From a virus: DNA of 64,000 nucleotides. Positions 30,571-46,822 of the stretch are shown here, in pieces; position 1 is the stretch's first letter; each line of letters starts with the position of its first letter. The translations under genes and the position numbers were made by a program. The DNA is taken from IMG/VR virus record IMGVR_UViG_3300032313_000500, positions 54,471 through 118,470 of that record; one strand, 5' to 3'. Below the pieces are notes generated by a model. The model did not search any database and was not told the DNA's origin. It saw only the letters and a program-made list of their open reading frames with translations.

Positions 30571-30632
30571 ACCTTCATACTAACGGTAGAAAGAACTAAA
30601 AACAACCTGTCGCCTACTTTTTTTGGTGGAGA

Positions 30633-30821
30633 CTAAATGCCCCACACCTTGCGCCACATCTCTGCGACTACTTCCGCCTGCGCCTCGCTGAGGCAAGGAA
30701 TGGTGTAGTTGAAAGAGTCAGAGGAGTCTCCTGTTGGACTAGAAACCCAAACCTCTACTCGTGAGCCCTGTGCGTAACAAGCGGTTACGCTTCCCTTCAT
30801 ATGTACTGTTGTGTTGTTCAT
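30633..30821 (-). CDS. Hypothetical protein
   Basis: ATG directly at the repeated promoter. Confidence 0.7.
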   Translation of the reverse strand: MNNTTVHMKGSVTACYAQGSRVEVWVSSPTGDSSDSFNYTIPCLSEAQAEVVAEMWRKVWGI

Positions 30822-30860
30822 ACCTTCAATGTATCGGTAGTAAGAGGTAAAAACAACCTC

Positions 30861-32774
30861 TCAAACACCTTTTCTGAATAATCCCATCAGCAGTTCACCC
30901 AACGAGTCGGCTTCAGCGGCGGGACCCCCGTCCACGGCTTGATTGACCACGCCACGCTTGCGCTCAATGAGTGAATAAATCTCCTCGTCAATGGTTCCAT
31001 CACACAACAAATAAGTTGCGGTGACGGAAGACTTCTGTCCCAACCTATGACAGCGACTGTAAGTTTGGTCAATGTCAGCGGGTGTCCACGGAAGTTCTAC
31101 GAATAAAACGTCTTGTGCGACTTGCAGGTTATGCCCCGTCTTCGCTGCTTGGATTGAGAGAACGATGACTGGTGCTTCTTCACATGGCAATGTCATAAAC
31201 TTGTGCTTCTGCGCTTCTATCTCGTTGATGTCCATTCCCCCTTGGATGCGCAAGTTACCGAACGCAAGTGCGAGTTCATCCACTACATCCCTGTGGTGGG
31301 CAGCGATGACGACTTTGCGTCCTTCGGCTACGCGGGACTCAACCCATTCTTTGATAACGGGCATTTTTGCTTTTGCTGACAAGCGACGCAGAACAGAAAG
31401 GCGAACTAAGTGCTGGTTTGACTCTGCTTTGATTTTGGCAACAACAGCAGCAGAGTTTGGATTCAGTCCAAGTTCCAGTGCTATCTCTTTTGCTCGTTGG
31501 ACAAGGTACTCAATGATGTCAGTTTCGGCTTTTCTGTATTCTTTCATTCCGGCCGCAGTCCCGTCAACAAGCACGGGGTCGTGAACAACAGGGGGTAGGT
31601 CGGATAAAACTTGTTCCTTTGTGCGCCGAATGTAACAAGTTGAGCGAAGTAAGTCATTTAGTTCATCAAGATTGCTATGTCCATCAAGATGCCATTGGCC
31701 CCACTTGTCTTTGAAGGCCCCGCAATAGCGTCTGTAGAAACCCCACTCTCCTCCGAACTTATCTAACTTTCCAAGAATGTTTAGTTGGCTTGCGTACTCG
31801 GCTGGTCGGTTGGTAACTGGAGTTCCCGTCAAACACAGAACAATTCCTTCTTTCGGGGCTGACCGTGCGATTTTCACGGCACTCTTAGTTCGCTGTGCTG
31901 TTGGCGTCTTGCAATAGTGACTTTCGTCAAAAACATACGACCTGTGGTTTGAGAGTTGTTTTTCCCACTTATTAAGGTTAGAATAACTAATAACGACTAC
32001 ATCATAATCAGAAGGAAACTCTTTACGGTCTTTTACGACTGCGACCTTCTTGTGTGGGAGCCACCTGTTGTATTCTGCTTTCCAGTTCAACACGAGTGTG
32101 GCGGGACAGACAACAACGGCTGGATAAGAGTCGTACACATACTCCAATGTCGCAATGGCTTGCAATGTTTTTCCCAAGCCCATCTCGTCTGCAATGAAAG
32201 TACGCCGTGCATTACTTGCGTAAGCAACCCCTGCTCGTTGATACGGCAGTAACGTTCCCGTCAGTCCCGTCACTTCAATCTCAGCATCAGTGAGTCGTGA
32301 TGCTTCTCTAAGTTCCGAGAGCGATGTGTCTACTGCTTTGAGCATTTCACGAACTTCGTCAGGAACCTGTTGTTTGAAAGTGTCACCCCACTTCACGACA
32401 TCGGCGATGCTGGTAACCGGGGCTCGCCATGCCATCGTCTTCTTGTCCCAAGTAACTCCTGCTACCTGTTTGACTGACTGAATCATCACTCTGTCGTAAC
32501 CAAAGGACATTGTCAGCCATTTGCCGTCGTAGTTGATGCCCCGTGCTTCGTTCTTATGAGAGGGCAATGTAAACAAGAGGACTTCGGGGTCAATGTCAAA
32601 GTCGTTGTCCTGTGCGAACTGCCTTGCTTCTTCCAGACTCGCCATCGGGGCTCGCCAGACACGGGAAACCTTGTCCCACTTCGCCCCTTTTATCTGTTTG
32701 ACTTTTGCTACCTCGCCTATGTCGTAAGGAAAGTCAAGAACTAGGTGGTCATCGTCAAGGCTGAGTTTTTTCAC
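30861..32774 (-). CDS. SNF2/SMARCAL1-like (HARP-type) helicase
   Basis: LLPYQ, ADEMGLGKT, DESH, LTGTP.TNRP, YIRRTK, QAAKTGHNLQ, QTYSRCHRLGQ; two N-terminal KWD...WRAP repeats. Confidence 0.92.
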   Translation of the reverse strand: MKKLSLDDDHLVLDFPYDIGEVAKVKQIKGAKWDKVSRVWRAPMASLEEARQFAQDNDFDIDPEVLLFTLPSHKNEARGINYDGKWLTMSFGYDRVMIQSVKQVAGVTWDKKTMAWRAPVTSIADVVKWGDTFKQQVPDEVREMLKAVDTSLSELREASRLTDAEIEVTGLTGTLLPYQRAGVAYASNARRTFIADEMGLGKTLQAIATLEYVYDSYPAVVVCPATLVLNWKAEYNRWLPHKKVAVVKDRKEFPSDYDVVVISYSNLNKWEKQLSNHRSYVFDESHYCKTPTAQRTKSAVKIARSAPKEGIVLCLTGTPVTNRPAEYASQLNILGKLDKFGGEWGFYRRYCGAFKDKWGQWHLDGHSNLDELNDLLRSTCYIRRTKEQVLSDLPPVVHDPVLVDGTAAGMKEYRKAETDIIEYLVQRAKEIALELGLNPNSAAVVAKIKAESNQHLVRLSVLRRLSAKAKMPVIKEWVESRVAEGRKVVIAAHHRDVVDELALAFGNLRIQGGMDINEIEAQKHKFMTLPCEEAPVIVLSIQAAKTGHNLQVAQDVLFVELPWTPADIDQTYSRCHRLGQKSSVTATYLLCDGTIDEEIYSLIERKRGVVNQAVDGGPAAEADSLGELLMGLFRKGV

Positions 32775-32824
32775 ACCCGCATCATAGCCCAGCGTTTGCG
32801 TTTGCGTGTTTGTGGGCAGACAGC

Positions 32825-32859
32825 AAAGAGCCCGCCAGCGGAGGGCACTGGCGGGCTCT
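32825..32859 (-). terminator. Hairpin terminator after the CxxC micro-ORF
   Basis: AGAGCCCGCCAG / CTGGCGGGCTCT inverted repeat. Confidence 0.7.
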
Positions 32860-32873
32860 GTGTGGACTGTGCG

Positions 32874-32942
32874 TCAGTCGCAGTGGTCGTGGTCTGGGTA
32901 GTCGTACCCGATTGGTTCGCCACAAGCGGAACATCTGTTCAT
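32874..32942 (-). CDS. 22-aa CxxC micro-protein MNRCSACGEPIGYDYPDHDHCD
   Basis: Own promoter (32961), GAGGAGGAGG RBS and terminator; paralog at 36801. Confidence 0.55.
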   Translation of the reverse strand: MNRCSACGEPIGYDYPDHDHCD

Positions 32943-33066
32943 TTTTTCCTCCTCCTCATTCATACCTTCACTCTATCGGTAATAAAAGGTAAAGACAACC
33001 CGAAACAAAAGAAAGTTATTTACAGCCTTTTCTCCCGCGCCATGAGCCCAGCGTTTGCGCTTGACC

Positions 33067-33327
33067 TCACTTGCCTAACTGAATGGTGTCGCCCGTGTGG
33101 ATAGTAGTCGTGTCTAGAAGTTCGGCTATGTCCCAACTTGCTTGGAGCGTGTGACCCGAACAGTATCTCTCGGTAATTTCTGAAAGAGTGTCGCCTCGCT
33201 CTACCGTCACGCTCACAGCGGGGCAGGAGTAGTCGTACTTGCTGTCAATGATGTTGCTGATTAGCAGGGCTACTGGCACCAATACGATAATGCCAACGGC
33301 TATGCGCCTTCTGATGTATTTACTCAT
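33067..33327 (-). CDS. Membrane-anchored LysM-domain protein
   Basis: N-terminal TM helix; VTVERGDTLSEITERY...IHTGDTIQL. Confidence 0.85.
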   Translation of the reverse strand: MSKYIRRRIAVGIIVLVPVALLISNIIDSKYDYSCPAVSVTVERGDTLSEITERYCSGHTLQASWDIAELLDTTTIHTGDTIQLGK

Positions 33328-33524
33328 AACTTCACTCTATCGGTAATAGAGGGTAAACACAACCTCAAACAAAATAAAGTTATACACAGAGTTATACACA
33401 GCCCACGCTGCGCTAAAACAAAAAACATCATTCCTAATCTACTAACGGTGGCGGAAAGCAAATGGGAATAACTGTCTAGACGCAAGAAGACAACGACGGG
33501 GCTGCGGCGGGAACGTGCAAAAAA

Positions 33525-33713
33525 CAAAAAAAAGAACCCCAACCCGAAGGCTGAGGCTCTAATTCCTTGTGACTCACCATTAGAACTCCCAAGGAAGAGT
33601 TTATGTTTGGTCGTGAGACAATCCAGCAGGTAGGGCTTCTCTGCATAATTGTGGTATTCCCAATCGCCGAGTTGCCTCAGTCTTTGGTTTCCACCTCGGT
33701 GTCCTTTACCGAT
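33525..33713 (-). ncRNA. Candidate ~190-nt structured sRNA
   Basis: Repeated promoter whose start position reads ATC rather than ATG; GNRA hairpins; ends in a UUCG terminator at 33533-33560. Confidence 0.45.
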
Positions 33714-33785
33714 ACTTACACTCTATCGGTTGTAGGGTGTAGTTGCAACCCCAGACCAGAAAAAGTCTGGCGAGTCCCGAGAACG

Positions 33786-34037
33786 TTAGTCCTTGTTGTT
33801 TTCCTCGTACCACAGCGTCTTCACCACTTCAGCCACTTTGATGTGGATGTAATCGTGATGAAAAGGGTCAAACATGGTTCCCCGAATGCGTTCGGCAACG
33901 GCGGGGCGCTCCTTGTCCAGTTTGTTGAAGAACACCTGACCTAGTCGCTTTTTGTTTGCTGGGTGTTCCCAAGAGGCATACACCCTATCCACAAACTCTT
34001 CGTAAGTTCCGTCTTCGTAGTGGTCGTCGCACGTCAT
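33786..34037 (-). CDS. Hypothetical protein
   Basis: MTCDDHYEDG..RLGQVFFN.L; coupled to upstream small ORFs 34034..34141 and 34138..34305. Confidence 0.65.
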   Translation of the reverse strand: MTCDDHYEDGTYEEFVDRVYASWEHPANKKRLGQVFFNKLDKERPAVAERIRGTMFDPFHHDYIHIKVAEVVKTLWYEENNKD

Positions 34038-34137
34038 TCGTCGGCCCCGTCTTCGTTCTCTGTTTCGCACAGGTAAGCGTTAGCCCAAGACTCCATGAAG
34101 TCGTTGTACGCCTCCATGTCCTCCCATGTCCAGTCTT

Positions 34138-34305
34138 TCATTTCAGTTTCGCCTTGCACCAATCGCACTTACGTCCACCATCTATTGCAGGGTCGTCTCC
34201 GTAAATTAGTTCAATGTCGTAACACTGCGACTGACCGTGTGTCATGCAGTAAAGGTATCTACCGTTACGCCATGCTTTTGGTTTGCGTGTCTCTTGTACT
34301 TCCAT
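34138..34305 (-). CDS. 55-aa Cys-containing protein
   Basis: ATG at promoter variant 34303; YC..H...CDWC. Confidence 0.55.
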   Translation of the reverse strand: MEVQETRKPKAWRNGRYLYCMTHGQSQCYDIELIYGDDPAIDGGRKCDWCKAKLK

Positions 34306-34355
34306 AGTTACACTTTACAGGTAGTAACCACTAATACCAACATGGTGAGAAAGAT

Positions 34356-34646
34356 TTACAGTCCTCTGTTGCTGGCTCGCCACTGCGAGGGTGAGTGGTT
34401 CTCCTCAACGCCCCGCTTCTCGTCTTCGTCGTAGTAGAGGCGCAAGATGTGGATGCACGGGTCGCTTTCCTCAAACTCGGCATCTTCTTCTTCTGTGGTG
34501 GGCAATCCGTCATGCGTATAGCAAATCGGGGCTCCAACCCAGCCGTTTTCGTAACCAGTTTGTAGCCAAGACTCAAATGTCGGCTCTTCGTTTATTCTCT
34601 CCATCATTTCAGATGGGTCAAAGTTTTCTGCATCTTTTCCTACCAT
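34356..34646 (-). CDS. Acidic hypothetical protein
   Basis: WLQTGYENGWVGAPICYTHDGLP...DPCIHILRLY. Confidence 0.7.
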   Translation of the reverse strand: MVGKDAENFDPSEMMERINEEPTFESWLQTGYENGWVGAPICYTHDGLPTTEEEDAEFEESDPCIHILRLYYDEDEKRGVEENHSPSQWRASNRGL

Positions 34647-34804
34647 GCTTGCAGGTTACAGGTTAGAAGCAGGTACGACAACCCGTGCGTCGTTTTCTTT
34701 GGAGAAAGCGAGGGCGCTGTTTGTTCGGCTCTTCCTTCGGTTCTTCCGGCTCTTTCGGAGCCCCGTCGTCTTCTGGTGGTTTTGTCATGTACCCATAATA
34801 CGAC

Positions 34805-34837
34805 AAATGCCCCTCAACCATTTTCAGGTTGGGGGCA
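34805..34837 (-). terminator. Hairpin terminator
   Basis: TGCCCCTCAACC / GGTTGGGGGCA inverted repeat. Confidence 0.6.
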
Positions 34838-35036
34838 CATGACGCCTCATTGAATGGGGGTGTGTGAGGTCTGTGTAAAACTTAGTCTTCTCGGGGCTTC
34901 TCGTCGGGAACTTTTGGAGTAAAAAACGGAGAGTTCATCTTTGCTTTTTCCCAAGCCTTCATAAACTCTTGGCGCTCGGCTTCTATTTCCTCTTCGGTTT
35001 GGGCTGCTCGTCTCATGGAGTGAGCATAGCAAATCT

Positions 35037-35327
35037 TCACCCTGTCTTCCACCAAATTCGGTCGCCTTCGTACTCGTCTTCGTACTCGTAGTCCATCCCA
35101 AACTCTCTATCAAGGCACTCATGACACCTGTTCTTGACGCTTACTTCTCGTCGTGCGTACTCAGCCATCTCTTTTGCGGTCTTAGTTGCCCCGCATTCGT
35201 TGCAACGGGCTGGTCTGTCGGCTACAAACTTGCGATAGTACGCCTGCCTGCGCCTCATGTTCCTGAGGTTCTTGCGTTCGGTCGCTTGTCGTTGCGCTCT
35301 ACGCTGCGCGGGGCTGACTCTCTCCAC
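35037..35327 (-). CDS. Basic Zn-finger hypothetical protein
   Basis: GGAGAGG RBS; CNEC and CHEC. Confidence 0.6.
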   Translation of the reverse strand: MERVSPAQRRAQRQATERKNLRNMRRRQAYYRKFVADRPARCNECGATKTAKEMAEYARREVSVKNRCHECLDREFGMDYEYEDEYEGDRIWWKTG

Positions 35328-35422
35328 TATTCCTCTCCTGCTAGGTCTAGACAGTACTTGCACTCACCGTTGCTACTGCAATGGCAATGGTCGGGCATCT
35401 CTGGGGTTGTGTATTTACTCAT
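35327..35422 (-). CDS. 31-aa Cys-rich micro-protein
   Basis: MSKYTTPEMPDHCHCSSNGECKYCLDLAGEE; ATG at the repeated promoter. Confidence 0.55.
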   Translation of the reverse strand: MSKYTTPEMPDHCHCSSNGECKYCLDLAGEE

Positions 35423-35605
35423 ACCTTCACTCTATCGGTAGTAAAGGGTAGTTCCAACCTGCAACAAAAGAAAGTTATCCACAGGTTTATCCACATCTAC
35501 GAAAAAATCAAAAAAAATCTCAGACCCCCTGGGGTGTGTCATAGTTTCTAATCTTATAACGGTGGCGGAAAGCAAATCACGGGGCATCGCCAGATGCCGT
35601 GATGG

Positions 35606-35902
35606 CTAACCAACCCTCATGTTGTCAGGCTTATGCGTGTCGTTCGGGTTGCGAACCACAAATGTGTTTTCGGGCGCACGACCTTTGTACTCGTAGTCAA
35701 GTGCGTCGGCGTGGAACAGGGCGAGCCCCGTCTTGGCTAGATAATCGTCAAGGAAATCTTGCATTGCGCTCAAACGGGCAAACGAAATAGAGACCGTAAA
35801 GGGTTTCGTCGGCGAACCGACTTCCATCTCCCTCAGCAGTTCATCTGTCGTGATGCCAAGAGCCTCGGCAAGTTTCTTGATGTCTTTGGCTGTTTTCCTC
35901 AT
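35606..35902 (-). CDS. Small protein with XRE-like helix pair
   Basis: IKKLAEALGITTDELL; ATG at the repeated promoter. Confidence 0.6.
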   Translation of the reverse strand: MRKTAKDIKKLAEALGITTDELLREMEVGSPTKPFTVSISFARLSAMQDFLDDYLAKTGLALFHADALDYEYKGRAPENTFVVRNPNDTHKPDNMRVG

Positions 35903-35939
35903 ACTTTCACTCTAGCGATAGTAAGAGGTAAAGACAACC

Positions 35940-36152
35940 TCACTCCTCGTATTCTTCGTCTAGGGTCAGGCAACCGAGAGCGTTGCTTGCTCGTGCGATT
36001 TCCTCGTCGCTCCACGGCAAGTCCTCGGGCCAGTCCTGTGGCTTTCCGTACCACCATGATGTCATGTGGCCACTCGGGCCAGTCAAGGCTTTGAGAGCCT
36101 CTCTTAGTTCTTCGGCTAGTCTTGCTACTTCTGTTATTTGGGTTTTCCTCAT
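35940..36152 (-). CDS. Hypothetical protein
   Basis: ATG at the repeated promoter. Confidence 0.65.
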   Translation of the reverse strand: MRKTQITEVARLAEELREALKALTGPSGHMTSWWYGKPQDWPEDLPWSDEEIARASNALGCLTLDEEYEE

Positions 36153-36259
36153 ACCTTCAATCTATGGATAGTAAAGGGTAGAAACAACCTGAACCCAAAC
36201 TTTTTTCAGAATGTTTCCCGTGAAACAATTAGGCATGCCTAACAAGCATTACGCAACTG

Positions 36260-36295
36260 AGGGGTGTGTCAAGGTTTAGGGGTGTGTCAAGGTTT
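36260..36295. repeat. Perfect 18-bp tandem repeat AGGGGTGTGTCAAGGTTT x2
   Basis: 36260-36277 and 36278-36295. Confidence 0.85.
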
Positions 36296-36687
36296 CAGTC
36301 GTACTGCTTGTCGCACATCATTGAGCGAACTTGGTCTGCGCTCAGCAGGAAGCCCCGTGCTGGGTTGTCGCCATCAGAAGCGAGACCAATCTTGGTCATC
36401 GGCTGGTTCGCCCGAAGGTATCTCTTTAGCCGTGCAACGCTGACAATGAAGAAGGAATCCGGGGCCAACCGATAAACCCACCAGTCGGCTGTTGTTACAT
36501 TTATACCTGACAACTGCCAGTCTTTACCTGCTGGCTTTTGCTCTGTTTCCACTACCATCTTGCCGTTACGGTACCTGTCCGACTTGACCTCAACGGCCCC
36601 GCTGCCGAACAACTCTCTTGCGTTGTCCTCACCTGCTTCTCCGTATGTAAGGTCGGCTTGAAAGTCAAAGCGTGGTTCGTATCCCAT
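36295..36687 (-). CDS. PD-(D/E)XK-like nuclease
   Basis: VEVKSDRY..GKMVVETE...SGINVTTADWWVY. Confidence 0.6.
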   Translation of the reverse strand: MGYEPRFDFQADLTYGEAGEDNARELFGSGAVEVKSDRYRNGKMVVETEQKPAGKDWQLSGINVTTADWWVYRLAPDSFFIVSVARLKRYLRANQPMTKIGLASDGDNPARGFLLSADQVRSMMCDKQYD

Positions 36688-36800
36688 TCCTTTACGCTAT
36701 CACGGGGCTACGCACGGGCAACTAGCGAGATGAGTGGAGACAGCCAAAAGCCCCCTAGCCTGTCCTGTCGGAGGGCTTCGGGGGCTGTGGTGTGGCTGTG

Positions 36801-36878
36801 CTATTCGCAGTCGCACGAGTCAGGCTTGTCATACCCGAACTCGTAACCACACTCAGGACAAGTGCTGGTTTCGTTCAT
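36801..36878 (-). CDS. 25-aa CxxC micro-protein MNETSTCPECGYEFGYDKPDSCDCE
   Basis: Own promoter (36896), GGAGGAGG RBS, downstream hairpin; paralog at 32874. Confidence 0.55.
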   Translation of the reverse strand: MNETSTCPECGYEFGYDKPDSCDCE

Positions 36879-36970
36879 TTTACCTCCTCCCCATTCATAA
36901 CTTCATCATATCGGTAATAAAAGGTAAAAACAACCTCACGCCGAAAATAAGTTTGTGGTATTCTGCGCTC

Positions 36971-37237
36971 ATGCCAAGCACGTGGGGCAGCAGCCCCGAA
37001 GACAGTAATTCATTTGTTGGGAACGACATTCCTCAGTACACGAAGTTCTTTGACTTACACGAGATGGACTTTGAGATGCGACGGGTCTCGGGACTCTGGG
37101 ACGTTCTGGCGTGGACTCGTGACAACGAAGATGTTTGGGCTGTGTCCAAGAAGTGCGAGTCGCTCGGAGATGCGTTCAACTCCTGTTACACAGAAGTGAA
37201 AAAACAGATGCGTCTTCTCAGCCCCGAGGAAAACTAA
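36971..37237 (+). CDS. Hypothetical protein, single + strand gene in a minus-strand block
   Basis: ATG 36971; followed by a terminator. Confidence 0.6.
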   Translation: MPSTWGSSPEDSNSFVGNDIPQYTKFFDLHEMDFEMRRVSGLWDVLAWTRDNEDVWAVSKKCESLGDAFNSCYTEVKKQMRLLSPEEN

Positions 37238-37269
37238 AAAACCACCCACCCGAAGGCAAGTGGCTTTTT
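37236..37269. terminator. Bidirectional terminator
   Basis: AAAAAACCAC..CCGAAGG..GTGGCTTTTT. Confidence 0.6.
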
Positions 37270-37280
37270 GTGGAGACTGT

Positions 37281-37502
37281 TTAGATGTAAGAGTTTGAGT
37301 CCATGTAAGACTCAACCGACAACTCGTAGTCCGAAGTGAGTTCCCACTCTTCCTCGGTACCCTCGTTACCGTTCCCTAGCCAGTCCTCGTAGTTCTCGTT
37401 GTACCTGTCCGAGTCCTTGAAGTCTTCTTCTGCCCTGTCCCAAGCGTCTTGTGCTTCACAAGCGTCTTGGTAAGGCTGTTCTAGCCATTGGTCGTAACCC
37501 AT
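37281..37502 (-). CDS. Very acidic hypothetical protein
   Basis: AAAGGA RBS after the repeated promoter. Confidence 0.7.
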   Translation of the reverse strand: MGYDQWLEQPYQDACEAQDAWDRAEEDFKDSDRYNENYEDWLGNGNEGTEEEWELTSDYELSVESYMDSNSYI

Positions 37503-37614
37503 AACGTTTCCTTTCTTGGTTGTAATAACATACTAAGGGTAGTAAAAGGTAAAAACAACCTGCTAAAGAAATAAGTTATCCACAGGCTGTCCGTGCGGAA
37601 GGCGTTTTGCTGGG

Positions 37615-37782
37615 CTACCGAACACGTGCGTTGATGTCAATGAAACGGAAGCAGGCTTCGCTTCGTTCGCTCTCGTCTTCACACAGCAATACCGCTGTTG
37701 CCTGAGCCCCGGTCAAGTCGTAAAGGCGCACATACCTAGCGTGTTCGCAGACATACGGGTTTCCAGTCAGTTCGTCTTTCAT
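37615..37782 (-). CDS. 55-aa hypothetical protein
   Basis: ATG at the repeated promoter; VCEH...LCE...C. Confidence 0.55.
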   Translation of the reverse strand: MKDELTGNPYVCEHARYVRLYDLTGAQATAVLLCEDESERSEACFRFIDINARVR

Positions 37783-37906
37783 AATTCCAGTCTATCGGTA
37801 GTAAGGGGTAAAAACAACATCGGATTATTCCGATGGTTTCATTGTTCTCTCTGCTTGCAACGCAACCAATAGTGTTACCTAATCTAGTTACGGTGGCGGA
37901 AAGGAT

Positions 37907-38218
37907 TTATTCGGCGATTGCCCAGACTCGTGAAGGACGCCCCGGCTTACCGAGTGTGTGGCAGTCGTCAATAACTTCCACTCTGCCTTCTTCTTCCAAG
38001 AACAGCAAACGCTTGGTTGCGTTAGCCTTATCCATGTCAAGCAGTTCGGCTACGGCAACTGTGCGAGCCTCACCCATTAGGGCAACGGCGAGATACACGG
38101 CTTCGGTTCGGGTTAGTTTGTCAAACAAAGCGTCACGGAGAGATGAGAAGTCGCTGATAGAAGCAACGACCTTTCCATCTACCATGAGGTTTGTTCCAGT
38201 CATAGTAATGTTGTTCAT
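37907..38218 (-). CDS. Winged-helix (TrmB/MarR-like) DNA-binding protein
   Basis: LTRTEAVYLAVALMGEARTVAVAELLDMDKANATKRLLFLEEEGRVEV..GRP. Confidence 0.75.
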   Translation of the reverse strand: MNNITMTGTNLMVDGKVVASISDFSSLRDALFDKLTRTEAVYLAVALMGEARTVAVAELLDMDKANATKRLLFLEEEGRVEVIDDCHTLGKPGRPSRVWAIAE

Positions 38219-38267
38219 AAGTCCATAATACCGATAAGAAGTCAAAACAACAACCTATCGTTTAGAT

Positions 38268-38462
38268 TTATTGGAACAGGGTTGGTTGGTCGTCGGCGAT
38301 GTTACGGGGCATGCAGACCTCATGTGCGTACGTGTGGTGGTTAGTAGCCACATACTTCACATTCTGTGTTACACCTTTAGCCCAACCTGTAATCAGGTGG
38401 TACACGCCCGATGAGCGTGGGTCTACTTCGTGGTCGCAAAAGTCGCATTTGTACTGAGCCAT
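38268..38462 (-). CDS. Small Zn-finger protein
   Basis: CDFC...HEVC. Confidence 0.6.
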   Translation of the reverse strand: MAQYKCDFCDHEVDPRSSGVYHLITGWAKGVTQNVKYVATNHHTYAHEVCMPRNIADDQPTLFQ

Positions 38463-38569
38463 GTAGTCCCGAGTCTAGAAGTTCTTTATCAGATAAGCAA
38501 CGACAATGAAGCCGATGAATGTCGTTCCGTAGAAAAATAAGTCGCTCATAATCTCTCTTGCCTTCTTTG

Positions 38570-38695
38570 TTAGAAAGGGTCTACCGTTTCTTCGTCTGCG
38601 CACTCATCGCACACATCGCCACACGCTAAACATTCTTCGCATTCTTTGAAGTACTTATCGTACTCTTCTTGGTCTCTAAAAGGTAGTAATCCCAT
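38570..38695 (-). CDS. 41-aa Cys-rich micro-protein
   Basis: ..ECEECLACGDVCDECAD..; ATG at the repeated promoter. Confidence 0.55.
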   Translation of the reverse strand: MGLLPFRDQEEYDKYFKECEECLACGDVCDECADEETVDPF

Positions 38696-38731
38696 ACCTT
38701 CATACTATGGGTAGTAAGAGGTAAAAACAAC

Positions 38732-39151
38732 CTAAGTATGTATTTCTTTTTGAACAGCGTCTGCTTCACACCTGAGACAGTCACGCTTGCGCCATGCGCC
38801 GTTCGGGGCTCCGAAGTACGTGTCTGAGTTGCCACAGTAGTTTTCACACTTGTCGCCCCAAGTCCATGCGTACTCACAGCATGAAGGAACTTCTATGCCA
38901 CTGCCGTTCATGTTCGGGTGTCCACCACCGTTGGGAAACAGGTATTTAGCCAGCCCCGGAAGTGCTTCCAGCATCTTCAGACAGCAGTCGTGACATAAGT
39001 GTGCTTCTTCTTCGTCACAAGGGAAGTTGTCAGAAAAGCCACCGTAGTGACCTAAAGAGCAATTACCTAGCGACCAGCCGTAATCAATGAAGTTGCCTTG
39101 TTGCTGAGAAGTCGGGGCCGCCACGCCACAGTTGGTGCAGGCTAGCGTCAT
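38732..39151 (-). CDS. Cys-rich hypothetical protein
   Basis: CTNC, CHDCC, CLRC; coupled to the upstream gene. Confidence 0.65.
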   Translation of the reverse strand: MTLACTNCGVAAPTSQQQGNFIDYGWSLGNCSLGHYGGFSDNFPCDEEEAHLCHDCCLKMLEALPGLAKYLFPNGGGHPNMNGSGIEVPSCCEYAWTWGDKCENYCGNSDTYFGAPNGAWRKRDCLRCEADAVQKEIHT

Positions 39152-39384
39152 CTTCCCCCCACCATTACGTTGAGTACGTTTTCGCTCGCCCATTTCACGG
39201 CGAGACGGTTCACGGTCATCAAGAACTCGGTTTCGGTTACGCCCTGCTCGGTAAGGAACTCCGTGAGGCGACCCTCGTTGAAGTCGTCAAGCATGTTCGC
39301 TAACGCCTGCGCGCCAGTTGCGCCGATTGAGTAGTACTCGCAGTCAAGTACGCCCTGAAAAGTGTCTGTGTATTTTTCTTTCAT
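39148..39384 (-). CDS. Hypothetical protein
   Basis: ATG 39384 at the repeated promoter. Confidence 0.65.
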   Translation of the reverse strand: MKEKYTDTFQGVLDCEYYSIGATGAQALANMLDDFNEGRLTEFLTEQGVTETEFLMTVNRLAVKWASENVLNVMVGGR

Positions 39385-39658
39385 AATTCCATGATAGGGG
39401 TAGTAAGAGGTAATCACAACTTTTATTGGGGATTATTTCAGAAGTTCTCGGATTAGGGACATCGCATCTGGGTGCCCCGGGTTCATTGCTCGTAATCACA
39501 TTCCATGTTGTCGCAACTTCCGTAGTTCTTGCAGAACGACTCGTAGTTCAGGCACTCTGGGTCGCCCTGAACGGCGTCATGCTGGGCTCTCGGAGGGCAT
39601 CTGCGTGTCACGACTCGCTTGCCAATCCTGTAAGCAATGTAGTTCGTAATCAGTCCCA

Positions 39659-39889
39659 TTAGTTCACCTTGTTGTGTTTTACAACTGCCTTCTCAATGTC
39701 GGCGAGTGCTTTCTCCGTGACTTTGAGCCCCGAGTTCACGAGTCCCATGAAGCCAAGTGGCGTCTGTTCGGCAAGGTCGTAGAACGCATCTACCGACTCG
39801 GCAAGTGCGCTCCAAGCGTTGAGGAACTTCTCCACCCATTCGGGGTCTCCGTTCGGAAGCACCACCGAGATTTCAGTTGCCGTAATCAT
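39659..39889 (-). CDS. Hypothetical protein
   Basis: Coupled to the KTSC gene. Confidence 0.65.
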   Translation of the reverse strand: MITATEISVVLPNGDPEWVEKFLNAWSALAESVDAFYDLAEQTPLGFMGLVNSGLKVTEKALADIEKAVVKHNKVN

Positions 39890-40185
39890 GAGGCTACCGA
39901 GAAGTTAGGCTTGATTTCACGAGCGATAAACGCACCGAGGCTATCTGCCGACATTAGTGCGAACATGGTAGGGAACGGAACGCCCTCGTAGGTGTAGAAG
40001 GTCTCAGCGTTCTTGTACCTGACAACCAGCGACTTCGTACCGACCTCATACTTCCAAAACCCAATGGCACTGCTGTTCTTGGGGCTTGACGCTATGTAGT
40101 TCTCACTAACCCATGCCCACTCGTTGTTGGCGTAGGTGAGGCAATCTCCGATAGTTGAGTTTTCGTAAATAAGTGTTTGTTTCAT
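39886..40185 (-). CDS. KTSC-domain protein
   Basis: SSAIGFWKY...SLVVRYK...YTYEGVP...ALMSADSLGAFI..EIK. Confidence 0.85.
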   Translation of the reverse strand: MKQTLIYENSTIGDCLTYANNEWAWVSENYIASSPKNSSAIGFWKYEVGTKSLVVRYKNAETFYTYEGVPFPTMFALMSADSLGAFIAREIKPNFSVAS

Positions 40186-40224
40186 AAGTTCACTTTATGG
40201 GTAGTAGGGGGTAAACACAACCTC

Positions 40225-40398
40225 TTACGAGGGAATGTTTGCCATTTCGTTCTGAACCAAGTTCAAGCCTTCCACAAGGGCTTTCCAGATGTCCTTCTTC
40301 ACTTGCGTGGGGACTGTGTCTGGCAACTTGTCATAGGCACGGATAGCCGTGCGAATGTCTTGGTGGGTCTGCATTATGTATGTTTCGTAATCACTCAT
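40225..40398 (-). CDS. 57-aa hypothetical protein
   Basis: ATG at the repeated promoter. Confidence 0.55.
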   Translation of the reverse strand: MSDYETYIMQTHQDIRTAIRAYDKLPDTVPTQVKKDIWKALVEGLNLVQNEMANIPS

Positions 40399-40596
40399 AC
40401 CCACACTCTATGGGTAATAAGGGGTAGAAACAACCTCACGCACAAATAAACTTATCCACAACCCTGTGGATAAAGTGCGACAGTTTCGTCGTGGGCGCAG
40501 CCCCGACCTGAGGGGGGCGACTTGCTAGGCGATGCCGACTACGACATTCTTACTCGGGTATCATTGCGAGCCTAGTTACGAGGGTTTTATGTGTTT

Positions 40597-40845
40597 CTAA
40601 TCGTTAGACGGTGGCGGAAGAGTCTCAACTAATGCGAAGTCATCTTCTCTGTACACAAGTCCAAGCCGGGACCCGTTGTCCCAATCAACGTGAACAGTTC
40701 CAAACGAATCTACGGAAGTGACAACTCCTTCATCACCACGAACAAGTTTCGTGTATGGGTCAGTGCAGTTGATTAGCCGTACTCGCTTGCCAACGTATGT
40801 TTTGTAATACGCCAACAGTTCGGGTCTTATTTCTTTTATGTCCAT
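40597..40845 (-). CDS. DUF4314-like SH3-fold protein
   Basis: GKRVRLINCTDPYTKL..GDEGVV..VDSFGTVHVDWDNGSRLGL. Confidence 0.85.
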   Translation of the reverse strand: MDIKEIRPELLAYYKTYVGKRVRLINCTDPYTKLVRGDEGVVTSVDSFGTVHVDWDNGSRLGLVYREDDFALVETLPPPSND

Positions 40846-40896
40846 AACTTCACTTTACGGATAGTAAGGCACAACAACAACCTACGGTCAAGACTT

Positions 40897-41481
40897 TTAC
40901 TGGTAGATGAAGTCCACTGTTTCTCTCAGCAGTCTCACCCCAGCGTGCCAGTCCGGGGCTGTGTTGATGTCTCGCTTCACCACAGCGTCTCTAAACAGGT
41001 AGTGACCCTGAGCAACAGGAACCTCAAACCAGTCTCCCTGCCAAATACCAACATGGTGAATGAGTTCTCCCACGGGTACGCACAGCCCGTGTCCAAAGAC
41101 AATGCCCTTGTCAGGTCTGTCAAACTGTCCTGCCGTGAGGTCTATGAACCATTCGTTCGTTTCCACGACAACGTGACCGTTCCATTTGTTCGGAACTTCC
41201 GTCACCGAGAGAGCCCCGACTGACCAACCAGTTGGTCCTTCGCCGTTCAGCATCTCCTTGTACGACTGTTCGTCCAGTCCAATGGCGTCCACCTGCGTCA
41301 CCCACGACTCAATGCCGACTTGTTTGAGATATTCCCAACCAAACCGTGAGCCAGCGACACAAGCCCCAGCGTTAGTAAGCCTCGGGGCTGCGCCCCTGAG
41401 CCACACGGAACTGAGTGTTTCCACCATTAGGCGTTCCTCAACCCGAGTTCGGGTCTGTGGTTTGCGCTTACGCTTCGTCAT
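40897..41481 (-). CDS. Hypothetical protein (possible transglutaminase-like fold)
   Basis: GACV...; GHVVV...WFIDLTAGQF. Confidence 0.6.
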   Translation of the reverse strand: MTKRKRKPQTRTRVEERLMVETLSSVWLRGAAPRLTNAGACVAGSRFGWEYLKQVGIESWVTQVDAIGLDEQSYKEMLNGEGPTGWSVGALSVTEVPNKWNGHVVVETNEWFIDLTAGQFDRPDKGIVFGHGLCVPVGELIHHVGIWQGDWFEVPVAQGHYLFRDAVVKRDINTAPDWHAGVRLLRETVDFIYQ

Positions 41482-41656
41482 CTGCCGTCTCTACTTCCTG
41501 CCTGTCCTCTCGCAGTATGTATCCAGCGAGAATTGCCACCACAATGCCTATGGGGTTCTCGTCTATGATTTTTTGTGCTTCGGCGTATGCCTCTGTTGAT
41601 GTCATGTAGTTACTCATACATTCATCTTATGGGTAGTAAAGGGTAATCACAACCCG

Positions 41657-41905
41657 TAACAAAAAAATGGGGTCGGACGGGAATGAATGAGGGGAAGAGG
41701 TCCCGCCCGACGCTCCCGTGAGAGTTCACGGCACTCTGAGTCCAAACGCAAGGCAGGCTGGTTGCGGGGCCCCCGTGTGGGGTACACCAACCCTGCGCCT
41801 CAGAGCCATGCTCCGTGAACGCCCACGGCAACGCCGTGAGGCTTGGGGGTTTTCTGTTGCCACGCTCCCCCTGAGCGCCGAGTCCGACTCGGTTGTGCTG
41901 TTGCG
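41657..41905 (-). ncRNA. Candidate ~250-nt highly structured RNA
   Basis: Nested stems GTTCACGG/CCGTGAAC, CTCTGAG/CTCAGAG, GCAGG/CCTGC, GGTTG/CAACC, flanking hairpins and a terminal stem with T7 tract. Confidence 0.5.
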
Positions 41906-41908
41906 CTA

Positions 41909-42073
41909 CTAGGCGAGCAACTCGGCGACCATGCCTCGCACCATACGGTGGAGACGCTTTACGCCTTTGTTGCCAGCACCGTAACGGGCAGTAGCCTCAG
42001 ACAACTCTGCCAAAAGAGCCTGCGCCATTGCCACACGATGTGACTTGTTCATTTTCACCTCCTCCCCACTCAT
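41909..42073 (-). CDS. Small hypothetical protein
   Basis: ATG 42073 at the repeated promoter; the longer ORF call to 42292 runs through noncoding motifs. Confidence 0.6.
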   Translation of the reverse strand: MSGEEVKMNKSHRVAMAQALLAELSEATARYGAGNKGVKRLHRMVRGMVAELLA

Positions 42074-42428
42074 GTCTCCATTATGGGGGTAGTAGGGGGT
42101 AATAACAACCTTTTCGGCAAATAACTTATCCACAGACTTATCCACAAACATTCCTGCCTGCGATGTGCCTGCGCTCGCGCGCACAGCCCCGAGACCCGTG
42201 CCTGAGTAAATGCCCTTGTTCGTGAACGATGTAGTGCCGTTCGGGGGGATTATTGTGTTTCTAATCGTCTTACGGTGGCGGAAAGGCTTCATCGGTCATC
42301 TCCACAGACATAGCAATGGTTGTTCTCCCATGCGTGAGTGCAATCCATCGGGGCGTCTGAGAACATTCCCGACCAGTCCGACTTGGCGATAAGCCAACCC
42401 AAAGCGAAACAGTAAATGTACCAACCCA

Positions 42429-42797
42429 TTAGATACTCGCTCTCATCTCTCGTTCGTCTGCGTTGTGCTTCCACAAGAACCACTGACGCTTCACGCCCTC
42501 AATGATGTTTTCTTCAATGTGGTGTTCGTGACCGTCATACTCGTTCTCTGTGCTGAATGAGCCAAAGAGAATGGCGTTGCCACAAATAACACGACCAAAG
42601 ATAATGCTCGCAATCGGGTTGAACGGAAGTCCGTCAATCAGACCCGTGTCGTTCACGTAGCCATGAAAGCGTTCACCACGAACGCAGTCAAACCAACCAC
42701 CAACAGTGGCGTTGATGAAGTCACCTTCGGGTGATGCGACCAATGTTGTTGTCGGCATACCCTCGGTAGGGATAATGAGTGCTCTAGTAAGTTTCAT
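42429..42797 (-). CDS. DUF3846-like protein
   Basis: INATVGGWFDCV...GYVNDTGLIDGLPFNPIAS....ICGNAIL. Confidence 0.75.
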   Translation of the reverse strand: MKLTRALIIPTEGMPTTTLVASPEGDFINATVGGWFDCVRGERFHGYVNDTGLIDGLPFNPIASIIFGRVICGNAILFGSFSTENEYDGHEHHIEENIIEGVKRQWFLWKHNADEREMRASI

Positions 42798-42839
42798 AAG
42801 TTCATTCTATGGGTAGTAAGAGACAGAGACAACCTGTCG

Positions 42840-43073
42840 TCAAGATTTCAGTTCCACTTTTTCTATGACTGCATCTGCAATCCACTCGGAGACGTCGTGC
42901 CCCGCGTCTTCCCATTCGTCAAACTCCTTACAGATTTCTGCCCACTTTTCTGTGGTGAGAACTTCATGTTCATCGTCACGGTAGTCAAACTGCTCTTTAT
43001 CCCAATACAGAACACAGAGTTCTTCTTCGGGGCTGTGGCGACTGAGCATCTCTAAGAGTGTCTTGACTTTCAT
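42840..43073 (-). CDS. Acidic hypothetical protein
   Basis: Coupled to the upstream gene. Confidence 0.7.
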   Translation of the reverse strand: MKVKTLLEMLSRHSPEEELCVLYWDKEQFDYRDDEHEVLTTEKWAEICKEFDEWEDAGHDVSEWIADAVIEKVELKS

Positions 43074-43498
43074 CAGTACAAGCCCATCTCTTCACGCTCT
43101 TCGTCTGACACGGCTGTCAAGGTGCTTGCGCTACCCATCGGCGAGTCGTGGTGACTGAGGTTGTACTCAATACGGTCTGCAAAGACTTCGTAGGTCATGT
43201 TCCAGTCGCTACGGACTGTCATGCCTGCAATGAGGTCTGCAACCGTCTTGGCGTAAATGTAGCCTGAGACTTCGCCGTTCCATAGGCGCAAGTTCTTGAC
43301 TTTCCACCAGTTTGTTTCGTTGGAGTCACGAAGTTCTTCCGTGACCATTGCAAAGTCCTCAACGGCGTATTCCCAACAGTCGCCGTAGCAAGTTGAGCCG
43401 TATTCCGTATCTACTGACTTTGTTTCTCCATCTTCCTCATAGGTGAGGCAGGTGCAGTTGTTTGTGATTTCGCCTTTTGCGATAACTGTGTTACTCAT
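43073..43498 (-). CDS. Hypothetical protein
   Basis: ATG at the repeated promoter; CTC..CYGDCW; SHHDSPMG. Confidence 0.7.
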   Translation of the reverse strand: MSNTVIAKGEITNNCTCLTYEEDGETKSVDTEYGSTCYGDCWEYAVEDFAMVTEELRDSNETNWWKVKNLRLWNGEVSGYIYAKTVADLIAGMTVRSDWNMTYEVFADRIEYNLSHHDSPMGSASTLTAVSDEEREEMGLY

Positions 43499-43534
43499 GA
43501 CTTCATCTTATGGATAGTAAGGGGCAACAACAAC

Positions 43535-43852
43535 CTAAATGTTTATGATACTTACAACTTCTTCTAGTTGTATCTGTATCGGCAGAGTGAGAGACGGGGT
43601 TGCGACATGAGCCCCGACTTCTACGGGTATCCATGAAACCATAAGCCACCCATCAGAGTGACCACGATAAAACTCTAAAACCTCATCAGGGTTGGAGTAA
43701 TAAAAGATTTTCTCATCTGAGACTCCGAAACTGTCCGTGCCGGGGCCTTCTAGGTATTCACCGAAAGAGATGTAACGAGGTGTCGTGCCATCGTCGTCTT
43801 TGACGATAGCCCAACCACCTTGCCACTTTGTCACGACAGTCTCAATAGGCAC
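43535..43852 (-). CDS. Hypothetical protein
   Basis: Overlaps the upstream gene end. Confidence 0.6.
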   Translation of the reverse strand: MPIETVVTKWQGGWAIVKDDDGTTPRYISFGEYLEGPGTDSFGVSDEKIFYYSNPDEVLEFYRGHSDGWLMVSWIPVEVGAHVATPSLTLPIQIQLEEVVSIINI

Positions 43853-44238
43853 TCTTTGAGTGCGTCGGAGAGTTGTCCTGTGCCACTACTGTCCGTAATG
43901 ATTTCATCAGGGTCATCAGCGAACGAAAGGGCAGAACCCATACCTTCGGCTGTCATGACGGTCACAAGCGCAACACGCCTGCGTTCAGGGTGCTTACTTG
44001 GTGCGCCTTCTACTTCTCCGTCGGAGTTGAGTGGCGCAGCCCAGCCAGTCGTGTGTACGGCTATTCCGACAACGCCAGCACTAGGGTATTCCCCGTCAAG
44101 CAAGTCGTACACATCAGGCGCACGACCTAACTCAAAGTTAGACCCATCTTCCGTGACTCCGTACAAGACAGCGTTAGCCATCTCATGACCTGTGTTTTTG
44201 ATAATGTTCTCGGCAACCGAGATTGGTGTTATGTTCAT
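43831..44238 (-). CDS. Hypothetical protein
   Basis: ATG at the repeated promoter; TTGWAAP...PSKHPERRRV. Confidence 0.7.
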   Translation of the reverse strand: MNITPISVAENIIKNTGHEMANAVLYGVTEDGSNFELGRAPDVYDLLDGEYPSAGVVGIAVHTTGWAAPLNSDGEVEGAPSKHPERRRVALVTVMTAEGMGSALSFADDPDEIITDSSGTGQLSDALKECLLRLS

Positions 44239-44275
44239 ACCTTTATCCTATCGGTAGTAAGGGGTAATGCCAACT

Positions 44276-44581
44276 TCACGCAACGGAGAAGTTGGGCTTG
44301 ATTTCTTTTGCGATGAAAGCACCGAGACTGTCGGCGTTCATTAGGGCAAAGACTGTCACGAACGGTACGCCCTCATACCAATAAAAGGTATCTGACGACT
44401 TGTACTGAACGCACAGTTCGTTGGTCTTGACATTGTAGTTCCAATACTCAATGGCTGAACTGTTTTTAGGGAGACTGCTAATACGGTCTTCTCGTACTAC
44501 TGCCGTTTCATCGTTGGCGTAGTCAATGTATGTATCGCCCTTGATGAATGTGGACTGTCTGATAGTTGATGTGTTACTCAT
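44276..44581 (-). CDS. KTSC-domain protein (paralog of 39886..40185)
   Basis: NSSAIEYWNY...ELCVQYK...YWYEGVP...ALMNADSLGAFIAKEIKPNFSVA. Confidence 0.85.
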   Translation of the reverse strand: MSNTSTIRQSTFIKGDTYIDYANDETAVVREDRISSLPKNSSAIEYWNYNVKTNELCVQYKSSDTFYWYEGVPFVTVFALMNADSLGAFIAKEIKPNFSVA

Positions 44582-44631
44582 ACCTTCACTCTATGGATAG
44601 TAAGGGGTAAAGACAACCCCATTGGAAAGAT

Positions 44632-44880
44632 TTATTTAGAAACTTGCGACTCTGCTAGCAGTTCTTCCACGGCGCAGAAGTAGTCCCGGGTTTCTTCCCA
44701 CGTTGCTTCCGACCAGTCAAGGTCACCCCACTCTGCGTCAATGAGTTTCTTTGCTCGGTCAATGTCGCACTCCATAACAACCACTACGGATAGCAGTTGG
44801 GAAGGCGAGTAACCCGAATGTCGGGGCGTCGTCGCCAGTAGTTCGTTGAATTTGGCTCGGCAAGTCTCGTCGTAGTTCAT
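44632..44880 (-). CDS. Hypothetical protein
   Basis: Probable start MNYDET (44880), overlapping the upstream stop. Confidence 0.6.
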   Translation of the reverse strand: MNYDETCRAKFNELLATTPRHSGYSPSQLLSVVVVMECDIDRAKKLIDAEWGDLDWSEATWEETRDYFCAVEELLAESQVSK

Positions 44881-45179
44881 AATGCTCTCTGTTCGTATCT
44901 GTGTTCTGCGTTGGCGAGCGTCTTGTAGTAGTCGCCTTGGTCGTATGACCAACCTTCGGGTCGGGCAATGAGGTTCCAAACCACATAAGGGTCAAACTCC
45001 TCAGGGCCCCGTTCTGCTAGAACGACCCAAGTCGCATAAGTGTCGCCTTTGATGCGCTCTCGCATTTTCTTGAAACGCACAATGGTCGCTCCGTTGATGA
45101 CCAAACCCTCAGTCGGGATACGGTACTCAGGCTCTGTCGCCTCGTTGCTTGCGATTACTGCTTCTAGTTGTGTTGTCAT
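44877..45179 (-). CDS. Hypothetical protein
   Basis: ATG at the repeated promoter. Confidence 0.7.
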   Translation of the reverse strand: MTTQLEAVIASNEATEPEYRIPTEGLVINGATIVRFKKMRERIKGDTYATWVVLAERGPEEFDPYVVWNLIARPEGWSYDQGDYYKTLANAEHRYEQRAL

Positions 45180-45219
45180 AACTTCACCTTATCGGTAGTA
45201 GGGGGTAAAGACAACCCAT

Positions 45220-45450
45220 TGCGAAACACATAACTGAGGTTGCGAACCTCGCCACTCCTATCCCGTCGGCAGGCTTGCTTACTCAGGGAAGAGGACGGAC
45301 TATCGGAGCGAGGACGGATACACCAGAGGGAGTAGGGAGTCTAGAACAAACGACTATCGTGGGTAGAGCCTTATCAGCGACAGAGCCTTATCTGTCAAAG
45401 TAAGCGCACCGAAGTGGGTGCTATGTATTTCGCAAGAGGTTGTCTCTCAC
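45220..45450 (-). ncRNA. Candidate ~230-nt sRNA with C/U-rich repeats
   Basis: Dedicated promoter copy (45448-45488); I found no minus-strand ORF longer than ~15 codons; hairpins and internal repeats. Confidence 0.45.
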
Positions 45451-45700
45451 ACCTTCAATCTATGGGTAGTAGGGGATAACAACAACCTGCCCACTACATT
45501 TTTTTACAAAACTTTCCAGTTTTTCCAAACAACTGACAAAGCCCAAATACTCACGCCAGCGCAGATGAGCGCGAGCCCCGGGTGCACGAAAAGCACGGGG
45601 TAAGCGAACACGAGCATGATGAGCAGATGTTTTAGAATTCGGGACTGCGCCATGATTTTCACTTTCTGTGTTTCTAATCGGCTAACGGTGGTGGAAAGCC

Positions 45701-46126
45701 CTAGCCGAACAACTTGCGTAGTTCTTGCTGGATACTTCCACTCTCGGCTTCGCCGTTCTCATCACACATGACTTCATCTGTGTCCAAGAAGCGCATGAGT
45801 GAAGTTTGTAGTCCCTCACAAGTCAAGCCAAAGATGACACGAGCAACATGAGTTTCGTCTGTCTCGGCGTTTATCGCACCACCGTAGGCAACTACGAACA
45901 CATGACCAAAGCCGTTAGCAAAGATAGATACTTCCTGATTACCAAACATTTCTTTTGGTTCATCAAAGGTGCTTACGACCAATGGAGTTCCACTATCGCA
46001 CATGACGACAATGCCAGTAGTCCCAAAATCAACAGGCGTTGAGTAGTCCTCTGGGTTCTCTGGAATAGGCAAAAGAGCGTCTAGTTCTCTAACCATGCTT
46101 ATTAGTTCTATCTGTGAAATGTTCAT
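45701..46126 (-). CDS. Acidic hypothetical protein
   Basis: ATG at the repeated promoter. Confidence 0.7.
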   Translation of the reverse strand: MNISQIELISMVRELDALLPIPENPEDYSTPVDFGTTGIVVMCDSGTPLVVSTFDEPKEMFGNQEVSIFANGFGHVFVVAYGGAINAETDETHVARVIFGLTCEGLQTSLMRFLDTDEVMCDENGEAESGSIQQELRKLFG

Positions 46127-46244
46127 ACCTTTACTCTATGGATAGTAAGCCCTAATACCAACCTCTAAATAAATCTATCTAAGTGTTGGAAGTGTCCCTT
46201 ACTACCCATAGAGTGGAGTCACACCACAACAAAGGAGAAACGAA

Positions 46245-46664: not shown

Positions 46665-46677
46665 TCCCCCCACATAG

Positions 46678-46721
46678 GGGAGTGAGATACGCACCGACAG
46701 GTAGCGACCTCACTCCCTTTT
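46678..46721 (+). terminator. Intrinsic terminator
   Basis: GGGAGTGAG...CTCACTCCC-TTTT. Confidence 0.75.
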
Positions 46722-46822
46722 GTGGTGTGCGTCGGGGCTCCCCGAATAAGTTTTTATGTCGGGTTGTCATTGACGCCTACTACCCATAGTATGAAAGTAC
46801 ACCAAACAAAAGGAGAACTGAA

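Follow-up and report, generated by a model that had tools for sequence, protein, structure and literature searches.

DnaA boxes stand at a fixed distance upstream of six early promoters in the final 64 kb (the stretch analyzed, hereafter the window) of the 118,470-bp IMG/VR virus record IMGVR_UViG_3300032313_000500 (CheckV completeness 79%), which derives from an uncultured phage with a genome of about 150 kb. The arrangement recurs in related phages and supports the view of the box as a functional DnaA-type site tied to transcription initiation. The boxes are putative binding sites of the host DnaA, a binder we infer from their sequence, and the reading preferred here, which has about an even chance of being right, is that host DnaA binds them and activates selected early promoters from upstream, on one face of the helix.

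The window contains 11 exact TTATMCACA boxes, a 13-fold excess over the 0.85 +/- 0.81 expected, and 11 was reached in none of 100 shuffles. A preceding sequence-only reading of the window had counted 11 perfect boxes against about one expected, and both this count and the box coordinates that it gave (Table 1) are right, including that of a degenerate box with two mismatches at site A. One-mismatch sites are near chance in the whole record (44 vs. 30 +/- 5). Nine perfect boxes and the two-mismatch site stand upstream of six minus-strand promoter copies; two further perfect boxes, at 11812 and 11857, belong to a cluster of their own, which includes iteron-like repeats. The 10 perfect TTATCCACA sites of the whole record are promoter-linked in seven cases, two residing in the 11.8-kb cluster and one in coding sequence. 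The end of the proximal box is 15 nt from the GGTTG that opens the promoter, 16 nt at site E, as the sequence-only reading had it (15-16 nt, fixed), the promoters being on the minus strand. The second box at a 12-nt period reported for three sites is found at B, C and F, and the inverted box reported for one site is found at site E, the partner being 13 nt away.

Table 1. Positions of boxes, promoters and other features in the window
Feature	Position	Strand	Remarks
Promoter A	32969-33000	-	32-bp motif
Site A	33016-33024	+	degenerate box, two mismatches, 15 nt upstream of promoter A
Promoter B	33333-33364	-	
Site B	33380-33400	+	two tandem TTATACACA-variant boxes (33380, 33392), 12-nt period
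Promoter C	35428-35459	-	ATG 35422
Site C	35475-35495	+	two perfect tandem boxes (35475, 35487), 12-nt period
Promoter D	37529-37560	-	
Site D	37576-37584	+	single perfect box (37576)
Promoter E	40404-40435	-	leaderless ATG 40398, 57-aa open reading frame
Site E	40452-40473	.	perfect proximal box (40452) and inverted perfect box (40465) 4 nt off, palindrome
Promoter F	42079-42110	-	ATG 42073, then Shine-Dalgarno site and second ATG
Site F	42126-42146	+	two perfect tandem boxes (42126, 42138), 12-nt period
Box cluster	11812-11936	.	four boxes as two inverted pairs 33 bp apart, then four iteron-like repeats of 15-16 bp
13-mer TTTCCGCCACCGT	33445, 35559, 37890, 40608, 42272, 45685, 48597, 53265, 54234, 55111, 55518	all -	
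WhiB-like genes, two	25216-25575, 57116-57517	-	
123-aa protein	53781-54152	-	sigma region-4-like helix-turn-helix

The boxes are islands of conservation, and not merely part of a duplicated block, since the mean pairwise identity among the six sites is 0.90 at the proximal box and 0.24, a random level, in the 40 nt further upstream. Values for the promoter, the T-rich 15-nt spacer and the 3-nt gap between boxes are 0.78, 0.55 and 0.42, respectively. The flank bears on the possibility that the box-promoter modules are replication origins or primosome-loading sites, as in transcription-activated origins. In E. coli oriC, the orientation of R1 sets the side of the box on which the unwinding element lies; by this rule the corresponding side is here the GC-rich, non-conserved flank, and inspection of it revealed neither a DnaA-trio array nor an AT-rich unwinding element. 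The 3-bp gap of the tandem boxes at B, C and F agrees with the oriC basal unwinding system (PMC8287927), and both site E and the 11.8-kb cluster can fold hairpins with a box in the stem, but six sites in this phage, and up to 14 per 10 kb in relatives, are too many for origins, and the iteron cluster at 11.8 kb is a better origin candidate. An oriC-like unwinding module was rejected on copy number and flank composition, and a role of the modules as origins is very improbable.

The putative promoter is a 32-bp motif: GGTTGT at its start, a 17-bp spacer whose TAC-rich core is conserved, and a final TAnnnT hexamer, followed by G. By weight matrix, 32 near-identical copies were found in the 118-kb record, spanning 28339-52011 and pointing outward from about 46.17 kb (minus strand 30607-46163, plus strand 46184-52011). 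The six promoters described by the sequence-only reading exist and carry boxes, but are a subset of these copies. Early mRNAs are probably leaderless, because an ATG or GTG lies exactly 5 nt past the motif in 24 of the 32 copies, mostly opening a real small open reading frame (ORF). Relative to the fixed ATG (+1), boxes occupy about -61 to -53, and second boxes -73 to -65. In this phage the promoters with boxes are those with free DNA upstream, most other copies directly following the stop codon of the preceding gene. Several box-less promoters with upstream space carry an A-tract at the position equivalent to the box, which weakly suggests that the upstream region hosts alternative boosting modules.

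RNA folds of the six upstream flanks revealed a terminator-like hairpin with a T-run upstream of sites B and C only, the boxes of site C following hairpin and T-run directly; the notion that a box always follows a terminator was rejected, no convincing terminator being found upstream of A, D, E and F. Repression by DnaA is known from several cellular promoters, and a DnaA-box complex can stop an elongating polymerase. Both properties favour an alternative in which host DnaA binds the same boxes with a negative or insulating effect, as an early repressor or as a polar roadblock against read-through at the heads of operons. The uniform polarity of the boxes relative to transcription, the location of sites B and C directly after hairpins, and the strength of promoters with boxes, which are no weaker than box-less ones, are in line with it. 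A roadblock, however, needs neither a fixed distance to the -35 region nor 11-12-bp phasing, and no convincing terminator precedes four of the six sites; the sites are also found upstream of the polymerase footprint and not over the -35/-10 elements. A negative or insulating role is rather unlikely.

Five related records, obtained by an IMG/VR scan with the promoter pattern and taken whole, were analyzed as close relatives. In their early region every perfect box precedes a promoter, by 14-16 nt if proximal and by 26-29 nt if distal, and all boxes have the same polarity. Loss of the spacing in relatives had been named by the sequence-only reading as an outcome that would refute it; box identity, polarity and spacing are kept across a broad phage family, while flanks and promoter consensus change. 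The interpretation given by that reading, in which the phage senses the DnaA state or sponges DnaA, is supported in part, as far as a functional DnaA-type site at early promoters goes. In alignments of orthologous sites, variable columns number 10/90 (11%) in the boxes, 17/192 in the promoter, 9/13 in the gaps between boxes and 112/466 (24%) in the upstream flank (boxes vs. other upstream columns, Fisher p = 0.006), and the alignments indicate that the box is under purifying selection. Site B is kept in three relatives (G004, G005 and L025). Both boxes of site C are intact in four diverged orthologs, despite an adjacent 13-nt insertion and altered spacers. In clade 2, the boxes of site F are intact, the spacers being altered, and site E has an intact proximal box and a distal arm decayed at one base.

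A wider family was collected by using as probe the SNF2 helicase encoded downstream of site A, which retrieved 78 IMG/VR loci (58-100% identity, 1.0 Mb). These loci contain 131 perfect boxes, about 8 being expected for random sequence, with a polarity of 101:30, the 101 having the sense of early transcription. The promoter consensus drifts between clades, the 9-mer remaining constant as the exact DnaA consensus. Boxes are found on 4/15 promoters in the 96% clade (51-53 nt from box end to start ATG), 3/18 in the 85% clade (52-53 nt), 5/20 in the 83% clade (52 nt), and 2/17 in the 78% clade (51 and 53 nt). They peak in two 63% clades, on 11/15 and 14/16 promoters, at 41-42 nt from the ATG, and are located there 7-9 nt upstream of a -35 region without TTG. 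Both the 41-nt and the 51-nt class occur in a single phage (L179). Taking all clades together, an ATG follows at 41-42, 51-53 or 63-65 nt in 64 of the 84 distinct sense boxes, and in 13.7% of random positions (p = 3e-38). These distance classes are 11-12 bp, or about one helical turn, apart, so that the boxes would lie on the same face of the helix.

The mismatch numbers of the 9-mers at the fixed offset form two groups, 0-2 and 3 or more; of the 49 box-like 9-mers, 43 are perfect. Variants differ mostly at position 5 (C, A or T), and also at position 3 (A, T or G), other positions being nearly invariant. A direct upstream partner accompanies 28 of the 84 perfect boxes, in 26 cases at exactly 12 nt, and imperfect partners deviate mainly at the same two positions. 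About 10 inverted pairs were counted among the family boxes, so single, direct and inverted arrangements all occur.

Tandem perfect boxes with a 3-bp gap were also found in at least 118 unrelated IMG/VR contigs (L054-L133; 30-66% GC), often as arrays of 3-6. By sequence, therefore, DnaA-box pairs are widespread in phage DNA. In a low-GC group (L067, L070, L076 and L083 are examples) the pair resides about 14 nt downstream of TATAAT, another promoter-linked layout.

As to the protein that would read the 9-mer, the site is the 9-bp TTATCCACA or fits TT(A/T)TNCACA, the classical box degeneracy given in a passage of 10.1101/866236. Variants are confined to the two positions degenerate in DnaA boxes, and the coexistence of single, direct and inverted arrangements is what is seen with monomer sites. 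Host DnaA would fit better than a phage protein because the consensus is universal, is invariant across drifting promoters, and comes in monomer-type arrangements; an unchanged box at a drifting promoter is more easily reconciled with a conserved host protein than with a co-evolving phage protein. A phage-encoded DNA-binding protein might nonetheless read the 9-mer as an early operator or stoperator, as in mycobacteriophage L5. The sites are asymmetric, oriented and repeated near promoters, as such operators are, and WhiB-like proteins, one weak helix-turn-helix protein (22884-23486), one ribbon-helix-helix protein (56778-57119) and the sigma-region-4-like protein are all encoded by the phage. 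A stoperator would, however, be expected to co-vary with its binder, and the site is invariant at 58-100% SNF2 identity, across clades with diverged promoters, and varies only where DnaA boxes are degenerate. Tandem pairs of the same kind are seen in the unrelated phage contigs of widely different GC content, and transcription from early promoters has to begin when no phage protein has yet been made. A six-frame search for the DnaA domain IV (Bac_DnaA_C, PF08299; E <= 1) gave no match in the record or in five large relatives of 78-132 kb. A phage binder is, on these grounds, unlikely.

If host DnaA is the binder, it would occupy the 9-mers upstream of selected early promoters and serve as an upstream activator on one helix face, helping host RNA polymerase to start at those promoters which have free upstream DNA and head transcription units. 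A role as upstream activator is suggested by a box position that is constant, in phase with the helix and upstream of the polymerase footprint, and by the 63% clades, in which boxes adjoin a -35 region without TTG, the usual layout of activator-dependent promoters. The distance to the core promoter is fixed, and the positions are whole helical turns apart, an inverted class at 38-39 nt (see below) complicating the picture. The direction of the effect and a contact with polymerase are our interpretation of the observed identity, spacing, polarity and conservation of the boxes. The top-affinity box of E. coli binds ATP- and ADP-DnaA alike. Almost every site has this top-affinity consensus, and its occupancy would thus depend on how much free DnaA there is, and not on the ATP/ADP state; sensing of the free pool, or plain recruitment, fits better than sensing of the nucleotide state. 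In lambda, according to a passage of PMC3985674, DnaA stimulates transcription and binds RNA polymerase.

Replication of the phage DNA would increase the number of boxes and, as a by-product, titrate DnaA. That DnaA capture is the main role, either as a sink starving the host oriC or as a tether to membrane-bound DnaA of the kind proposed for T5, is quite unlikely. In its favour are the many top-affinity boxes, at least 11 to a genome and, in the 63% clades, about 25 in 10 kb, and the occurrence of pairs separated by 3 bp in T5-like phages as well (10.1101/866236), but capture requires neither a promoter spacing fixed to a single base nor helical phasing. The boxes, moreover, are not packed within about 1 kb as in datA, but lie 0.4-3 kb apart over 9 kb; dispersed in this way and locked to promoters, they do not support a datA-like sponge. 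A more extended scenario combines activation and titration: in a lineage of large freshwater actinophages, DnaA would be a phase-locked early co-activator, the free-DnaA pool would gate lytic entry, and phage DNA would drain DnaA and stop host initiation. This scenario is tentative, and we regard it as possible but not probable.

Several observations weigh against activation by host DnaA. Boxes are found on only six of the 32 promoter copies, and the core motifs of these six score the same as those of the others, which indicates that DnaA is not needed for this promoter type as such; the idea that promoters with boxes have weaker cores was rejected on the same scores. The position of the transcription start is deduced solely from the fixed ATG. 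The box of site D is present in G005 and absent from the ortholog in G004, a close relative. As site A is better matched in relatives (a one-mismatch box in G004, a perfect box in clade 2), boxes are evidently gained and lost over time. In the 61% clade boxes are inverted and abut GGTTG/-35 (38-39 nt), with an 11-nt period; strict class I or class II activators seldom have such latitude. The several small DNA-binding proteins of the phage could be alternative binders. High-GC actinobacteria favour G at box position 3. Unlike this preference, 48 of 49 proximal boxes carry A there, which would suit a host of lower GC content; a literature search on the actinobacterial box variant returned primer matches only.

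The host is probably a freshwater actinobacterium, as suggested by two WhiB genes, the leaderless starts, and the distant actinophage matches of the primase-helicase (only about 30% identity to actinophage proteins). The nearest Atlas clusters of the WhiB proteins comprise Actinomycetota and viruses. A search of genome contigs for WhiB identified only phage-like contigs binned into marine metagenome-assembled genomes (MAGs), and no host genome. WhiB homologues with 68-70% identity reside on short contigs (L044-L046), in all likelihood of phage origin and misbinned, in MAGs assigned to Poseidoniaceae archaeon, Planctomycetaceae and Phycisphaerae. The region is without a megablast match among cultured phages and plasmids. 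Sigma region 2 was searched throughout the record and not found.

Minus-strand genes occupy about 30.6-46.2 kb, both strands being read. The ATG at 32963, after promoter A, starts a 29-aa Cys-rich peptide, and the SNF2 helicase gene (32774-30861) comes next. The leaderless ATG at 33327, after promoter B, starts a protein of 86 aa that combines a LysM-like region with a membrane helix. Promoter D is not leaderless, and precedes a Shine-Dalgarno-led 73-aa ORF (37502-37281). No informative Pfam or PHROGs function was found for nine ORFs downstream of five box promoters (the 29-aa peptide after promoter A excluded), the sole match being a weak one to LysM/transglycosylase, and a search of the region against Rfam found no RNA family. 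The segment before the -10 hexamer of the promoter often reads CCGATA, resembling a sigma-28/WhiG-type -10 element, and the resemblance is clearer in relatives of the 63% clade.

The cluster at 11.8 kb lies inside a 480-bp gap upstream of a 3212-aa ORF (12120-21758, plus strand), which has no Pfam match at E <= 0.001. Each of its 15-16-bp repeats contains ACATGT, and the cluster is conserved in G005. It is a candidate replication origin, or other DnaA-dependent site, as judged from this architecture.

Two further elements are found near the promoters. The 13-mer TTTCCGCCACCGT, usually followed by GATTAGAAAC, is strictly polar and has 13 matches vs. 1.3 expected. Five of the six box sites have it 45-300 nt upstream. 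The 13-mer is conserved, in a constant orientation, in almost every related clade to as low as 61% SNF2 identity, is often placed there 85-140 nt ahead of a DnaA box, and has no match in Rfam. The 16-bp near-palindrome TGTTTCACGGGAAACA is located at 36212-36227, about 22 nt upstream of a promoter at 36189. It recurs upstream of promoters in the divergent relative G001 (at about 28900 and 24330), one copy being placed between a tandem box pair and the promoter, and is probably the operator of another regulator.

In full-text literature searches, no account of phage early promoters with arrays of DnaA boxes came up. The novelty claimed by the sequence-only reading thus holds for the searched literature, apart from the boxes of lambda pR/pO and of the T5 iss region. 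Within that literature, DnaA as a transcription factor and the use of DnaA boxes by phages were known before, and the array on phage early promoters is new. The published phage examples are isolated, lambda pR/pO on the one hand and T5 iss, with another proposed role, on the other. Virtually every bacterium has DnaA, and the top-affinity site hardly differs among them. DnaA would thus be an ideal host factor for a virus to exploit, a portable promoter booster as well as a readout of replication readiness. If the preferred reading is true, the coupling of early viral transcription to the host replication initiator would be a general strategy, followed by dozens of uncultured phages. The natural variants in spacing and orientation (41, 52 and 64 nt, inverted) make the mechanism directly testable.

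DnaA doubles as a transcription factor at dnaA, nrdAB and mioC in E. coli, in the dnaA/sda regulon of B. subtilis, and at gcrA and ftsZ in Caulobacter. Mycobacteriophage L5 stoperators are many asymmetric sites, set in one orientation relative to transcription, which bind the phage's own repressor. The boxes described here resemble them in asymmetry and in orientation relative to transcription, and in belonging to an actinophage; L5 sites, in contrast, have a phage-specific sequence and are distributed genome-wide, whereas the present ones have the host DnaA consensus and are confined upstream of early promoters. Consensus 9-mer boxes near the promoter are shared with the DnaA-regulated cellular promoters (DnaA acts as a transcription factor at such promoters according to a passage of PMC3193534). 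Unlike these, the promoters analyzed are viral, and the boxes hold one phase-locked position on many promoter copies, kept across a phage family.

Tandem boxes of the same orientation at most 3 bp apart are the commonest layout of bacterial oriC (PMC8287927), and in this respect the pairs are like the basal unwinding system; unlike oriC, they have no trio array or AT-rich unwinding element on the fitting side, and are present in many promoter-tied copies per genome. In T5-like phages the iss region contains DnaA or DnaA-like boxes, eight in number and invariably paired with a 3-bp gap, which are conserved in 25 phages and proposed to tether the DNA to membrane-bound DnaA and so stop injection (10.1101/866236). 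The geometry of these pairs is the same as that of sites B, C and F, but the T5 boxes lie in long untranslated inverted repeats of the terminal repeat, away from promoters, and the present pairs in short intergenic gaps before promoters. In lambda, transcription stimulated by DnaA activates ori-lambda, and DnaA footprints two boxes near pO, as reported in a passage of PMC3985674. Lambda pR/pO and the present array have in common a phage with host DnaA at its promoters, putatively so here; lambda differs in having one or two imperfect sites downstream of the promoter, which serve origin activation, the array described here being upstream, at fixed spacing, on early promoters.

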